In this document: positions 10,994 to 17,130 of the stretch, piece after piece
Numbering within the stretch: the first letter of the stretch is position 1
Layout of the letters: each line of letters opens with the position of its first letter
DNA from: a virus
Taxonomy: Duplodnaviria; Heunggongvirae; Uroviricota; Caudoviricetes
Virus record (IMG/VR): IMGVR_UViG_2675903575_000014
Span: 1-28,377 of that record
Length of the DNA: 28,377 nt
Strand: one strand, 5' to 3'
Program-made: the position numbers and the translations under genes
Notes under the pieces: model-generated
Database searches by the model: none
What the model was told of the DNA's origin: nothing
Seen by the model: the letters and a program-made list of their open reading frames with translations, nothing else

Positions 10994-12874
10994 TTATCGC
11001 CCAGCAGATTTAGCAAGAATAGTCTCGAGCATTTCTGGTACGTTGCCTTTAGCATTGATAGTTGCTGTTCGGTAAGCTAGTTGATTTTTTGAGAGATTGA
11101 TTCCTGTAAGTGCTTCAATTTCGTTGCAGGCCTTACCCCATTCTACCCAGTTTTCAGACAAAAAAGATTCAAGATGATCCGCAAATATAGCAATATCATT
11201 AGTAACTGTTGCAGCTGGAAAATCCTCTTCGGGCATACCAAAGTATCTAAGCAGACTTCGATTCTCCATTGCGTGATTATTCCGCTCGGCATCGATAGCT
11301 CCCTGCATTTTATTTTTCGCTTTGGCACGAGCTTCAAAACCCGCATCTGCATCGAAAAGCGCGAAAACAGGAACGCCAATTGTACTTAGAATCGCATGGG
11401 CAAGTGGGATTGATGTCTTTGAACCTACAGGAACAATAGAGATGCCAGCGGCTTCAAGCGAGCCGTGTGACTTCCTGTCGCCAATTCCATAAAACACCGA
11501 TAATTCTGTTGTCCCTTCTACCAGAAAAGCTCTTTGGGCAAAGAGAGCTATTGAAAGCTGATCAGCTACATTATGGCCAAGCCTTCTATCAACTACTTCG
11601 GCATTAACAATTCCTTTTAATTTATCTTTGACATCTTCGATGGTTGCAAAGTGAACAGAAACAACGGGGTTTGCATCAGATGTTCGTGTCAATCGTCTAA
11701 TCTGGTTGAAATGGCGAGCTTCAAGAAAGTATGGGCTGTGAGTCGCATATGTTATCTGTATGCGCTTATCCGCATCTTCGGCGAGTTCTCTGAGTACTTT
11801 TGCAAATGCTTGTGCTTGGATCGGATGCTGAAATAATTCTGGTTCTTCGATCGCAAGGCAAATAACACCTTCGGTAGAGGCTGCACCAGACTGAGCTAAT
11901 AATTGGAGAGCAGAGATCAGTATCGTGCGTTGAAAGCCGTGCCCTTGCCTTTCGACTGCTGTTTCGGTTGTGCCATCAAGCACAGAAACTTCGAATGTGG
12001 TCTTGGGGGCCTTCAGTTCGATATTTGCAGGGGTAACTGTAACAGCACGACCGGGGGAGTAAGTCGTAACTACGGCGTTCAACTGCGCCGTCATATCCGC
12101 AAGTTGGGTTTCGAATTTTTCTTTGTAGACTTTCTGCTGCTGGACTCGGGATTCTTCAACAATCTTTGCAATTTCCTCATCTGCGGCGGTGCGATCAATC
12201 GAACGTTCAAGAATTCGACCAATAATACTCGCCTTGCCATCGAGAGACTCTTCACTGGCACGAAGATCTGCTGTTACCAAAACGTAATCAAAGAGACCGC
12301 TCATCTTGCCGCCACTGTTGAAACCGAAAAAGTTGGTTTGTAGGGATTCAAGTGCCTCATGTAGTAATTCTGTATGTGATGCTTCCCATGCAGTCATTGC
12401 TTCTTCGACAGCAAGCCCGGTCTTGGCAACGGGAAGATTGAATTCAGGATGTGCTTCTCGAAGAGCGTTGTACAAATCCTTCTTCGCTGTTGCTCCATTA
12501 GCAGCTTTAATATCGTTAAAATAAGGGAAACTTTTTGCGTTGGCAGAAAGCCTTTCTGAACCGTCGGGCGCGCGTAGCCTCCAGGCAGTGAATGTTGCTG
12601 CTCCCTGCGGAGCGTATTTGCCAAGTGCTTCACGATCTCTCTCAGTGAGGTTTGAGAAGGTAACCTGTACCTCAATATCTTTATCAATAGTTCCAAATGA
12701 GCAATCTTTTTCATTTAACATCCCGACCTTACCGTTGAAGAACCAATCAAGTGCTCGGAGAACAGTAGATTTACCTGCCCCATTCGGGCCAATGAACGTT
12801 GTAACGGAATCGAAGGGAATATTTATATCTGTCAAAGTACGAAAGTTTTTTATCCTAACGGAATGAATTTTCAT
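10994..12874 (-). CDS. OLD-family ATP-dependent nuclease (N-terminal ABC-type ATPase plus C-terminal Toprim; 626 aa); class 1 OLD or fused PARIS AriA-AriB-like
   Basis: Walker A GPNGAGKST (residues 30-38); Walker B-like VICLAIEEPELFQHP; H-loop-like YATHSPYF; C-terminal Toprim-like FLVEGTTE, VPVGSKTS and FALFDADAG. No adjacent UvrD-like helicase gene. AT-rich relative to flanking phage genes. Confidence 0.8.
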   Translation of the reverse strand: MKIHSVRIKNFRTLTDINIPFDSVTTFIGPNGAGKSTVLRALDWFFNGKVGMLNEKDCSFGTIDKDIEVQVTFSNLTERDREALGKYAPQGAATFTAWRLRAPDGSERLSANAKSFPYFNDIKAANGATAKKDLYNALREAHPEFNLPVAKTGLAVEEAMTAWEASHTELLHEALESLQTNFFGFNSGGKMSGLFDYVLVTADLRASEESLDGKASIIGRILERSIDRTAADEEIAKIVEESRVQQQKVYKEKFETQLADMTAQLNAVVTTYSPGRAVTVTPANIELKAPKTTFEVSVLDGTTETAVERQGHGFQRTILISALQLLAQSGAASTEGVICLAIEEPELFQHPIQAQAFAKVLRELAEDADKRIQITYATHSPYFLEARHFNQIRRLTRTSDANPVVSVHFATIEDVKDKLKGIVNAEVVDRRLGHNVADQLSIALFAQRAFLVEGTTELSVFYGIGDRKSHGSLEAAGISIVPVGSKTSIPLAHAILSTIGVPVFALFDADAGFEARAKAKNKMQGAIDAERNNHAMENRSLLRYFGMPEEDFPAATVTNDIAIFADHLESFLSENWVEWGKACNEIEALTGINLSKNQLAYRTATINAKGNVPEMLETILAKSAGR

Positions 12875-13295
12875 TTTGCTTCCCTTCCCAATATTGTGCC
12901 TTTTGATCAGTTATCTGATTAGATGTCGGAAAAATCACCCATGGGTATAGACTATGCGAAAAGCCATTGGTTGACTACCTCAATGTATCCTGTATCAACA
13001 ATGAAAATGTCCGTTCTTCGCTCACAGAGTTAGTGCGACAGCTTCGCACCAAGAGCTGACATTGTAATATCCGACAGGCTATTGCCTGTCAGTTAAGGGA
13101 GCAGTTACGTGTTATAAAAGGTCAGGCGGGATCCTGACTAGGCGTGTTTAAAGAAGTGCTGGTGGTGAGCGGGTGTTGTGTCCAATTTCCACAGAAAAAA
13201 AATCTGAGAAACTATACCCAATAGTTGTATTGAATCACTGACGAGACAGCCTCATATTTATCAGGACTGGCGTACGTCCAATTCAGGAGGTTGTC

Positions 13296-13385
13296 GTGCT
13301 GGTTCTCAAATGTGCGCTAGCTATTGCGGCTGTAATGGCAATTTATTGTCTTGCTGTTGTTCTTACGGATCGCCTTTCTGATTGA
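13296..13385 (+). CDS. Candidate small hydrophobic peptide (29 aa; VLVLKCALAIAAVMAIYCLAVVLTDRLSD from a GTG start)
   Basis: Perfect AGGAGG SD 5 nt upstream of the GTG; single predicted transmembrane helix followed by a charged tail, like type I toxins or a truncated Hok N-terminus. Confidence 0.3.
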   Translation: MLVLKCALAIAAVMAIYCLAVVLTDRLSD

Positions 13386-13469
13386 TTTTATATTGGCGAG
13401 GTGACGTGAGTTAAGTAGAATTGCTGCGGGTGCTTGAGGCTATCTGTCTCAGGCATGAACACCAAAGGC

Positions 13470-13560
13470 AGATAGAGAAAAGCCCCAGTTAACATTACGC
13501 GTCCTGCAAGACGCTTAACATTAATCTGAGGCTCAATCTATGAACGGCAAATCTAGGTTA
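13470..13560 (-). ncRNA. Predicted Sok-like antisense RNA of the hok locus (position approximate)
   Basis: Inferred from hok/sok family architecture. The leader (gcttgaggctatctgtctcagg ... ggcagatagagaaaagcccc) resembles, from my memory of R1, the hok mRNA 5' region. No explicit promoter was mapped. Confidence 0.25.
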
Positions 13561-13596
13561 GCCTCTTACGTGCCGAAAGGCAAGGAGAAGCAGGCT

Positions 13597-13752
13597 ATGA
13601 AGCAGCAAAAGGCGATGTTAATCGCCCTGATCGTCATCTGTTTAACCGTCATTGTGACGGCACTGGTAACGAGGAAAGACCTCTGCGAGGTACGAATCCG
13701 AACCGGCCAGACGGAGGTCGCTGTCTTCACAGCTTACGAACCTGAGGAGTAA
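13597..13752 (+). CDS. hok: Hok/Gef-family type I toxin (51 aa; MKQQKAMLIALIVICLTVIVTALVTRKDLCEVRIRTGQTEVAVFTAYEPEE)
   Basis: Single transmembrane helix followed by the conserved Cys-containing periplasmic tail typical of Hok/Gef; I recall this as matching E. coli HokD/RelF, unverified. An in-frame upstream ATG at 13540 gives a 70-aa mok-like extension. Confidence 0.85.
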   Translation: MKQQKAMLIALIVICLTVIVTALVTRKDLCEVRIRTGQTEVAVFTAYEPEE

Positions 13753-13820
13753 GAGACCTGGCGGGGGAGAAATCCCTCGCCACCTCTGATGTGTCAGGCA
13801 TCCTCAACGCACCCGCACTT

Positions 13821-13842
13821 AACCCGCTTCGGCGGGTTTTTC
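13821..13842 (+). terminator. Rho-independent terminator after hok
   Basis: ACCCGC-TTCG-GCGGGT hairpin followed by TTTT. Confidence 0.6.
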
Positions 13843-13967
13843 GTCGCATTATGAGGTTGTAATTTTAGCTACCATTAGACTATCCTAAGGATCTCAAACA
13901 GATCTATTTTGCATCAAATTTGGTGCATGGCTTTGCCAATAATCGGAAAACAAAAGGACTCATTAGT

Positions 13968-14147
13968 ATGAGCTGCCCACTCAAAAAACACACGCGGTTG
14001 AGTATTCCGCCTCGCGATAAAAGCGTTGTGGCAGTCCCTCGCCCAGCGATTGATGAAAACTGCGCACATCGTGAACAAGTGAAAAATGCTTTTGATTTCG
14101 GTTTTTCTCGTTATGAGAAAGCCATGGAAGAACTTTCAAAAGTGTAA
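13968..14147 (+). CDS. Candidate antitoxin for the Doc-like toxin (59 aa)
   Basis: Small ORF 19 nt upstream of the Doc-like gene; AAAGGA SD. No clear similarity to Phd; assigned by position only. Confidence 0.4.
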   Translation: MSCPLKKHTRLSIPPRDKSVVAVPRPAIDENCAHREQVKNAFDFGFSRYEKAMEELSKV

Positions 14148-14165: not shown

Positions 14166-14651
14166 ATGGCTGAGATTGTTGAAGGAGTGCATTACCTTAC
14201 GGTTGATGATCTTGTTGAAATCAATCGTTCCCTAATTGAATTACAGACGCCAGATGAGCCCGTTGGTGTTCTGAGTCCAGATAACTTAAGTTCTTCTCAG
14301 GCCCGTCCCAGCATGGTTCGATGGTATGAACAGACTAATGACATGTTTGTACTGGCATCGGTATTGATTGAAAGTCTGATTCAGAATCATCCGTTTGCTA
14401 ATGCGAACAAACGAACAGCTATGATGGCTGGTTACGTCTTCTTGTTGTTGAATGGCTATGAGTTAACAGCACCAGGCGATGAAATCGTGGAAATGGCAGA
14501 GGGACTGGCCTGCAAAACCTATACTCGAGAAGATCTCGAGAACTGGTTGTGTTATTGGTCTCGCGCGTATGACAGCCGGGAATTATGTAAAACAGGCGCA
14601 ACTATTGTTTTGTATGAAACTATCAAGCTTAGAATAGAACAGCAAAACTAA
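14166..14651 (+). CDS. doc: Doc-family toxin (Fic/Doc fold, 161 aa)
   Basis: HPFANANKRTA matches the Doc signature H-x-F-x-(D/N)-(A/G)-N-K-R (P1 Doc has HIFNDANKRTA). Size is appropriate and it is followed by a terminator. Confidence 0.8.
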   Translation: MAEIVEGVHYLTVDDLVEINRSLIELQTPDEPVGVLSPDNLSSSQARPSMVRWYEQTNDMFVLASVLIESLIQNHPFANANKRTAMMAGYVFLLLNGYELTAPGDEIVEMAEGLACKTYTREDLENWLCYWSRAYDSRELCKTGATIVLYETIKLRIEQQN

Positions 14652-16468: not shown

Positions 16469-17130
16469 ATAACCAGTATTTACAGTTTGTGCGTGAGCAG
16501 CTCACGATCGCCACCGCTGATTTGAGTGGAGCAACAAAAGGTCAGCTTGAAGCCTGGCAGGAGAATGCCATGTTCAATACAGGGCGTTACAGACGTAAAA
16601 AAATCCGGTGCCGCGATAAGGTCACTGGAAAAATAGTAACGCTGGATAATCCACCGATCCCGGGAAAGCAATCGCTGGTGAAAGGTTCATCAATTGCCCT
16701 GGTCAGTCCGGTTGAGTTTTCGACATCATCATGGCGACGCGCCGTTCTGTCTCTTGAAGAACATCATAAAGCCTGGCTGCTGTGGTGTTACAGCGGTAGC
16801 ATTTGCTGGGAGCATCAGATCGCGATAACGCAGTGGGCGTGGACTGAATTTAATGCTCAATCCGGTACCAGAAAAATTGCAGGAAAAACTCTGGTGCGCC
16901 TGAAGACGTTGATCTGGTTGGCGGCGCAGGCGGTAAAAGCTGAGCTTTTTGGTGGGGAAGGTTACGAATACCAGGAACTGGCGTTACTGGTGGGAGTAAC
17001 AACCAAAAACTGGTCCAAGACATTTACTGGTCACTGGGTTGCAATGAAACACATTTTTCATCGGCTGGATGGTGAAGCTTTATTGTTGGTGGAGGGAACA
17101 CGTTCAAAACAAAAGGCGGCATTTTCATAG
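16465..17130 (+). CDS. Putative late-gene antiterminator (Q-like, 221 aa)
   Basis: Position immediately after rusA and before the pR'-like promoter and terminator; Cys/His/Trp-rich central region; ATGA overlap with the rusA stop. Assigned mainly by synteny. Confidence 0.55.
   Translation: MNNQYLQFVREQLTIATADLSGATKGQLEAWQENAMFNTGRYRRKKIRCRDKVTGKIVTLDNPPIPGKQSLVKGSSIALVSPVEFSTSSWRRAVLSLEEHHKAWLLWCYSGSICWEHQIAITQWAWTEFNAQSGTRKIAGKTLVRLKTLIWLAAQAVKAELFGGEGYEYQELALLVGVTTKNWSKTFTGHWVAMKHIFHRLDGEALLLVEGTRSKQKAAFS

Follow-up and report, generated by a model that had tools for sequence, protein, structure and literature searches.

The hok locus of this Escherichia coli prophage is probably best explained as two independent, adjoining units placed in a moron/defence slot that has the replication genes on one side and the nin/Q region on the other. 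One unit (window positions 13408–13844) has, as judged from its sequence, all the parts of a complete and canonical hok/mok/sok type I toxin–antitoxin cassette, an element that is already known and ordinary. The other is a 29-codon open reading frame (ORF) directly upstream, which appears to be a real gene belonging to the ECs_5710-like family of small membrane proteins and whose product would be an independent small inner-membrane moron protein. The evidence considered here consists of homology at the sequence level, the conservation of ORFs, RNA folds and genomic contexts, from which we infer the transcription starts, the expression of Sok, the translation of the 29-codon ORF itself and every functional step.

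Genomic context of the locus

The window, meaning the whole stretch of 28,377 nucleotides that was analysed, is an E. coli lambdoid (lambda-like) prophage, and its positions 13100–13900 share 100% identity with the chromosome of strain N61. The annotated neighbours are, in order, DUF1376, P, DUF1627 and DUF977 (replication genes), a divergent gene for a 626-aa ATP-dependent nuclease, and hokD; after hokD follow a Doc-type toxin gene, DUF968, RusA, Q and the lysis genes. Around the finding itself, the PGAP annotation calls the 51-aa hokD alone and misses mok, Sok and the small gene, and the locus thus illustrates systematic under-annotation.

The hok/mok/sok cassette

The identification of a Hok locus in the initial annotation of this DNA is borne out at both the protein and the RNA level. 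The Hok domain (PF01848) is recognized in a 70-aa ORF at E=3e-23, with profile positions 1–42 of 42 covered, and the leader of the hok mRNA matches the Rfam family RF01794 with 110 bits (gathering score 59) over model positions 1–157 of 157 (window 13428–13602). The reading frames described there, a 51-aa hok with an upstream in-frame ATG, also stand. The hok toxin gene occupies 13597–13752 on the plus strand and encodes 51 aa identical to HokD (WP_000813254.1), as given by the PGAP annotation of the identical sequence. The upstream ATG at 13540 opens mok (13540–13752, plus strand), a 70-codon ORF that is in frame with hok and amounts to a 19-aa N-terminal extension of it. This ORF overlaps hok, and its start codon lies within the Sok-complementary region, at a position identical to that of the annotated mokW.

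Transcription of hok is predicted to start from a plus-strand promoter at 13393–13421, detected by the promoter scan and consisting of a -35 element TTGGCG, a 17-nt spacer and a -10 element TAGAAT, the latter hexamer ending 7 nt upstream of the Rfam-defined 5' end of the mRNA at 13428. On the basis of the RF01794 match and the minimum free energy (MFE) fold, the full-length hok mRNA would extend over 13428–13841 on the plus strand and close with a terminator hairpin at 13821–13841. In the MFE fold of the predicted mRNA (13428–13845), the 5' sequence GGGUGCUUGAGG, which forms the tac element (13428–13439, plus strand), pairs with the 3' sequence CCUCAACGCACCC, which forms the fbi element (13802–13814, plus strand), and the terminator hairpin comes next. 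The fold of the full-length mRNA has a free energy of -173 kcal/mol and a z-score of -7.7. Closure of the full-length mRNA by tac–fbi pairing is a feature known from plasmid R1.

The RF01794 model falls on the hok-sense strand here, as it likewise does at the K-12, 933W and R1-type loci, opposite the annotated sokC and sokW; the match therefore proves homology of the leader, not expression of Sok. Regulation by a Sok-like antisense RNA had been left unverified in the initial annotation, and homology now points to its place: the 71-nt sokW of phage 933W maps to 13478–13548 on the minus strand, where a putative Sok RNA of ~71 nt would be encoded. This RNA is predicted to fold (z=-5.6) into a long hairpin between a single-stranded 5' tail over mok codons 1–3 and a U-rich tail. 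Its probable promoter spans 13555–13583 on the minus strand, with a -35 element TTGCCT (13583 to 13578), a 17-nt spacer and a -10 element TAACCT (13560 to 13555). This element was read from the sequence and was not flagged by the consensus promoter scan; the start that it predicts is 13548, and its spacing fits the 5' ends of sokW and sokC. The Sok promoter of R1, which we take to be TTGCGC-17-TATCCT (letters read from the R1 sequence), lies at the same position.

The extent of the cassette is evident from 80 IMG/VR loci that encode the same Mok–Hok. Homology common to these loci covers only ~13408–13844 and the contexts outside this interval differ, which therefore defines the boundaries of the cassette.

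Reading frame of mok relative to hok

In plasmid R1, mok was said to lie in another frame than hok, and this is confirmed by the R1-type locus L216, where mok occupies 416–628 and hok 474–632. Mok of the R1-identical locus begins MSSPHQ, and the R1 sequence is found with 100% identity in more than 2600 plasmids. The implication that the in-frame mok of the window is a departure has to be given up, as the same arrangement is annotated for mokC/hokC of K-12 and for mokW/hokW of 933W. An in-frame mok extension of 19 codons is present in all 119 distinct prophage hok loci extracted, and the 70-aa Mok–Hok product is encoded on at least 1000 contigs of public databases, under the names 'Hok family toxin' or 'regulatory protein'. 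An in-frame mok is the usual arrangement for hokC/D/W-type loci and gives an N-terminally extended Hok. In the R1-like plasmid pMTY1886, moreover, mok is in frame with an identical Hok through a 1-nt length difference, and the frame of mok is therefore labile; it is presumably unimportant for the mechanism.

Relationship to known hok systems

The mokW/hokW/sokW system of the Stx2 phages 933W and VT2-Sakai (Sp5) shares 93.3% nucleotide identity with the window over 95% of the cassette. In 933W, as in the window, mok (213 nt) and hok (156 nt) have one common stop codon and are thus in frame, and the 71-nt antisense sokW (671–741 of the 933W locus, minus strand) overlaps the first 9 nt of mok, a geometry that is the same here. 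The 933W/Sp5 and window cassettes both reside in lambdoid prophages, but their prophage positions and neighbours differ. Mok codons 2–6, which correspond to the Sok 5' tail, are also different, with MNGKSR in the window versus MLNTCR in 933W mokW, and 933W is without a gene of the 29-codon ORF family upstream of its cassette. The hokW–sokW pair of Sp5 is known from experiments to form a toxin–antitoxin system of type I that depends on RNase III and Hfq; HokW is made after prophage induction and phage release is raised, and it is for this close homologue that killing or arrest of cells by Hok, and its counteraction by Sok, have been demonstrated (PMC8621323).

The hokD gene (relF) of K-12, located in the cryptic prophage Qin, encodes a Hok protein identical to that of the window. 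At the DNA level, the two are 98.8% identical only from the hok Shine–Dalgarno (SD) sequence to the terminator (window 13583–13841); the K-12 locus has lost the leader, including tac, the mok start, the Sok target and the hok promoter, and carries relBE in its place. Since the homology is limited to 13583–13841, the intact form of hokD is the one in the window. The cassette would accordingly represent the intact ancestor-type of K-12 hokD and appears to be a close relative of hokW/mokW/sokW.

The hokC (gef)/mokC/sokC locus of K-12 resembles the window in that mokC (16751–16960) and hokC (16751–16903) share a stop codon and are in frame, and in that sokC is an antisense RNA overlapping the mokC start, with the same geometry of the Rfam match. 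Its nucleotide identity with the window cassette is ~74%; the hairpin of its Sok region is 18 nt shorter, and IS186 interrupts the K-12 copy on its downstream side. The R1 hok/mok/sok locus (parB) has the same elements in the same order, and the Rfam leader model matches both; however, mok is out of frame in R1 and the Hok sequence has diverged. R1 is a plasmid locus for post-segregational killing, whereas that of the window is a prophage locus.

The 29-codon gene and its coding constraint

The 29-codon ORF reported ~300 bp upstream with an AGGAGG is confirmed at 13296–13385 on the plus strand, where it starts 301 nt before the hok ATG; its start codon is GTG, not ATG. The product, MLVLKCALAIAAVMAIYCLAVVLTDRLSD, is a small protein of the ECs_5710-like family predicted to cross the membrane once, with a GRAVY of 1.72 and a best 19-residue window of 2.56. 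The Shine–Dalgarno sequence AGGAGG (13285–13290, plus strand) ends 5 nt before the GTG. Among 94 homologous loci, the GTG start is present in every one and AGGAGG in 82, the remainder having AGGGGG, AGGAGA, GGGAGG or AGAAGA. Upstream of it lies a promoter-like element (13230–13258, plus strand) composed of a -35 TTGAAT (13230–13235), a 17-nt spacer and a -10 CATATT (13253–13258). This element is weak by consensus (8/12) and was not flagged by the consensus promoter scan. CATATT is nevertheless kept in 94/94 loci and TTGAAT or TTGAAG in 76/94, with TCTCAT at the -35 position in 17/94 and a spacer that diverges in distant relatives; the conservation of these hexamers therefore suggests that the small gene has its own weak promoter.

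Judged within a single sequence, the ORF would attract little attention: the combination of AGGAGG, a start codon and at least 25 codons arises ~1.1 times per dinucleotide-shuffled 28-kb window and is observed 2 times here. The SD sequence and the length are therefore at chance level, and it is the comparative data that support the ORF. A plus-strand 'terminator' call at 13320–13339 falls within the ORF and was treated as chance, and a minus-strand promoter-like match at 13414–13385 occurs at chance frequency and is not kept in loci without hok. Pairing of the 5' UTR of the ORF mRNA with codons 6–9 is only partly kept in L086, a locus that lacks hok.

Relatives of the 29-aa peptide were sought by exact look-up, tblastn and a degenerate DNA pattern. 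Of 5426 complete E. coli genomes, 2644 contain DNA homologous to the ORF region, and the ORF is intact in all motif-retrieved homologous loci, including those of 79–86% nucleotide identity, although part of these intactness counts stems from retrieval by motif, a procedure biased towards intact copies. In the subfamily to which the window belongs (subfamily 1), 20 distinct coding sequences occur among 89 copies, with polymorphic sites distributed over the three codon positions as 6/5/15. There are 17 synonymous versus 12 nonsynonymous variants at 22 versus 62 sites, respectively, which puts the omega-like ratio at 0.25 (p=2e-4 by a binomial test). In relatives of 79–86% nucleotide identity, the coding sequence is 86–91% conserved, compared with 55–62% for the 80 nt upstream. 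The hydrophobic single-helix peptide ORF that was initially noted is thus substantiated, by codon-position bias and conservation, as a genuine conserved coding sequence.

In a contig scan of GTDB species representatives with the degenerate pattern, Shigella flexneri (E. coli clade) alone had a member of the family; four further matches, in Collinsella, Segatella, Oscillospiraceae and Bacteroidales, fit the number due to chance, as estimated by hand from the information content of the pattern. On these sequence comparisons, the 29-aa gene family is conserved and restricted to E. coli/Shigella. Neither the 29-aa ORF nor its 34-aa relative has a match in Pfam, NCBIfam or PADLOC, and PHROGs returned only a non-significant match for the small ORF (E=2.4). 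YnfS of K-12, which is also 29 aa long and also encoded in Qin, is unrelated to the peptide.

The sister subfamily ECs_5710

A sister subfamily (subfamily 2) with a 34-aa product, MSDDISLAMEGALAVVAVVGVYCLVVFLMDRLGN, is represented by ECs_5710, a hypothetical protein encoded in the lambdoid prophage Sp6 of O157:H7 Sakai, 188 nt upstream of an in-frame mok–hok. Its homology to the 29-aa peptide is indicated by a Smith–Waterman score of 73, which is reached by 0 of 2000 shuffles (shuffle mean 22.5, p<0.0005). The two peptides are 52% identical overall and 60% identical over 24 shared residues; the YCL and DRL motifs are kept, and the core can be written A-L-A...Y-C-L...D/E-R-L. Amino-acid identity between the subfamilies is 60% at a nucleotide identity of 67%, and subfamily 2 has a coding signature of its own, with polymorphism of 1/1/8 by codon position and an omega-like ratio of 0.21 (p=0.012). 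ECs_5710 starts with ATG, in contrast to the GTG of the 29-codon gene, and is extended at its N-terminus by an acidic stretch (MSDDIS); it is without its own promoter and comes after a DUF551 gene and another small ORF, and a palindromic hairpin stands between it and hok.

ECs_5710 corresponds to XECs145 of Hucker et al. 2017, predicted there to be an inner-membrane protein with one transmembrane helix (PMC5597208). In LB, XECs145 showed an RNA RPKM of 79, a RIBOseq RPKM of 346, a ribosomal coverage value (RCV) of 4.35 and a coverage of 0.99, in a study that took ORFs of at least 30 aa and whose reads may multi-map among prophages (PMC5597208). The RIBOseq signal belongs to the Sakai homologue, the 29-aa form being under the 30-aa cut-off. 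A full-text literature search with the peptide strings retrieved no paper, and the homologue surfaced only in supplementary tables (PMC5597208).

Alternative interpretations of the small gene

The peptide had been likened to the N-terminus of Hok, and a degenerate hok duplicate was one of the identities offered for it. The ORF does adjoin hok, and both peptides have a hydrophobic helix that holds a Cys-Leu pair and is followed by charged residues; however, Smith–Waterman alignments of the 29-aa peptide with HokD, HokC and R1 Hok are no better than those of composition-matched shuffles (p=0.09, 0.46 and 0.53, respectively), no HOK_GEF (PF01848) match is obtained at E<=10, and the ORF region shares no DNA repeat with either the leader or the coding region of hok. 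Purifying selection acts on the ORF in its present form; the ORF is therefore not decaying, and its derivation as a degenerate duplicate or truncated relic of hok is scarcely credible. The other identity offered, an independent type I toxin-like peptide, would mean a membrane toxin with an unrecognised RNA antitoxin. Such a role would suit a small, very hydrophobic (GRAVY 1.72), prophage-borne peptide whose gene adjoins other toxin–antitoxin genes (hok, Doc), but the antisense strand offers neither a promoter-like site above chance nor a stable structure (z=+0.63), and no Rfam family is found over the region even at E<=1. The fold of the leader is not significant (z=-1.8), and the SD sequence lies in a weakly paired loop instead of being strongly sequestered. 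Furthermore, the Sakai homologue is well translated in growing cells (RCV 4.35), which is hard to reconcile with a toxin and therefore argues against toxicity, albeit indirectly. As neither an antisense promoter nor an RNA family nor a leader of significant structure was found, this identity is improbable. It is also highly unlikely that the ORF is untranslated and owes its conservation to some DNA or RNA element, for example sequence upstream of the hok promoter or a recombination-prone flank. This possibility would agree with the chance-level occurrence of the SD sequence and ORF in a single sequence, with the omission of the ORF from the PGAP annotation in nearly all genomes, and with the existence of hok loci that keep just the last 20–60 nt of the ORF. 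It is opposed by the third-position bias and the synonymous excess in the ORF's own frame in two subfamilies, by the amino-acid identity of 60% retained between them at 67% nucleotide identity, by the invariant GTG start and the conserved SD sequence, and by the RIBOseq signal of the Sakai homologue.

The position of the gene next to hok raises a different question, namely whether the two units work together. Among the family members retrieved as IMG/VR pattern matches, ~110 of ~125 (~90%) lie directly upstream of a hok cassette, with the spacing constant in a given subfamily (+49 nt for subfamily 1, +81 to +83 nt for subfamily 2), and Sakai Sp6 has the same arrangement. The recurrence of this placement at ~90% in two subfamilies of 52–60% amino-acid identity is more than would be predicted from pure coincidence and could indicate functional coupling. 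The 29-aa protein might then act in the membrane as a modulator or antidote of Hok within a three-part module; or else the expression of hok or Sok might be tuned as the ORF, whose end lies 8 nt ahead of the hok -35 element, is transcribed or translated. Coupling in either form would be compatible with the lack of a terminator between the ORF stop codon and the hok promoter (in the sequence and by scan) and with a third variant in which the ORF runs into the hok promoter. On the other hand, hok is widespread without the ORF, as in plasmids, about half of the sampled prophage hok loci (where the upstream context is another), R1, K-12 and 933W, and ~10% of family members are without hok. In two loci of the latter kind (L085 and L086), the small ORF is followed by a convergent TehB/DUF1971 gene. 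The subfamily of the ORF does not covary with the Hok or Mok variant, the same variants being found behind every upstream context, and in several loci hok is retained while the ORF is cut down to a 3' stub. Taken jointly, the two forms of coupling have a small chance of being correct, and the linkage is most likely attributable to common ancestry of the prophage slot combined with homogenisation of the hok cassette.

Proposed function and biological significance

By homology to characterized systems, the hok mRNA would be a stable transcript that is kept inactive by pairing of the 5' tac with the 3' fbi, and 3' trimming would free translation of mok, which in turn would permit that of hok. The unstable 71-nt Sok RNA would pair across the mok start region and block mok translation, so that Hok would be made upon decay of Sok; as in the Sp5 prophage after induction, Hok may then damage the inner membrane. 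The upstream unit (13230–13385) would be a small moron gene with a weak, conserved promoter-like element, a strong SD sequence and a GTG start. Its product, a predicted single-pass inner-membrane protein of 29 aa, is likely to be expressed in lysogens and unlikely to be toxic. As do most characterised small membrane proteins, it would most likely bind another membrane protein. That the small gene stands beside hok would most likely reflect a slot ancestry in common, not a mechanism in common.

Toxin–antitoxin biology gains little from this locus, as the cassette is of the textbook hokD/hokW type and an in-frame mok is usual outside R1. What the window does show is the intact form of the hokD that is rearranged in K-12. 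The 29-aa gene, for its part, belongs to a sporadically annotated family, of which one member has ribosome-profiling support and which is linked to hok to a striking degree. A more consequential, albeit unlikely, reading is that the ECs_5710-like family constitutes an unrecognised third, protein component of prophage hok/sok modules, which would explain why two diverged subfamilies lie directly upstream of hok in ~90% of cases. If true, such a component might buffer leaky membrane Hok or determine at what threshold Hok-assisted lysis occurs upon induction. The conservation of the family and its linkage to hok make the 29-aa gene a cheap target for knockout or overexpression.

Genomic setting of the small gene and hok

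The OLD-family nuclease, a 626-aa protein encoded at 10994-12874 on the minus strand, combines Pfam AAA_15 with an OLD-like TOPRIM domain and is matched by the PADLOC 'Old' model at 1e-55; its gene is transcribed divergently from the 29-codon small gene (13296-13385, plus strand). Its slot carries different cargo in related prophages: an 82-aa hypothetical protein in L002, SIR2 with an NTP pyrophosphatase and an amidohydrolase in L085 (a locus with the small gene and no hok), and QueH in L086-L088. The slot looks like a variable defence/moron hotspot whose right boundary is formed by the small gene and hok.

To the left of the small gene, a terminator-like hairpin occupies minus-strand positions 13121-13138, with the sequence GTCAGGATCCCGCCTGAC and then CTTTTAT. 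It sits at the left limit of the conserved block: homology to other prophages sets in at about 13136. The putative -35 element of the small gene, TTGAAT, is replaced by TCTCAT in 17 of 94 loci (L010, L042, L043 and others). The result, in the region homologous to 13228-13246, is the perfect palindrome TCTCATCA/TGATGAGA; it may be an operator-like site or no more than a lineage variant.

In other prophage contexts, too, unrelated small hydrophobic ORFs were observed directly upstream of hok, approximately 30-120 nt before the start of the hok mRNA (loci L005-L084). One encodes a 27-aa protein (MTWPEA...ICRWG) and has its own ATG overlapping the stop codon of a DUF551 gene; another specifies a 32- or 59-aa protein ending in CIEYWR. 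Contexts of subfamily 2, the 34-aa sister group within the 29-aa ORF family, present a tandem of two small transmembrane ORFs ahead of hok.

Immediately downstream of hok lie a 59-aa ORF without a family match (13968-14147, plus strand) and a Fic/Doc-family gene (14166-14651, plus strand; PF02661, 6.6e-12), the latter annotated as a death-on-curing toxin. Together, they probably constitute a type II toxin-antitoxin pair.

Rfam matches on the hok transcript

The Rfam 'sok' model (RF01794) matches the hok-sense strand at 13428-13602, as it also does at the K-12 sokC locus, in 933W and at the R1-type locus, and this strand is opposite to that of the annotated sokC and sokW. The match is a marker of the hok leader and not of the antitoxin RNA strand. 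A sub-threshold isrK match (26 bits, where the gathering score is 50; E=0.0017) at 13761-13842 on the plus strand spans the hok 3' UTR, the fbi element and the terminator, and probably reflects a common 3'-end architecture rather than an sRNA gene.

Variation in mok

The frame in which mok is read is labile in evolution. In the plasmid pMTY1886, an R1-like locus with an identical Hok, 57 nt separate the mok and hok ATGs (L004, 340-400) and mok is therefore in frame, whereas the 58-nt spacing of the classic R1 type (L216, 416-476) places it out of frame.

Among 123 distinct hok cassettes, variability sites lie at 13538-13550 and 13458-13467, and the sharpest internal hotspot is the former (entropy 0.9 versus a mean of 0.22), corresponding to mok codons 1-4, which are also the Sok 5' tail. 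Mok N-terminal variants include MNGKSR, MLDTCR, MLNTCR, MSHKCR and MLYTRR, while the remainder of Mok, unlike its N-terminus, is near-invariant. This variation may reflect diversified specificity of Sok-hok recognition between the several copies present per genome.
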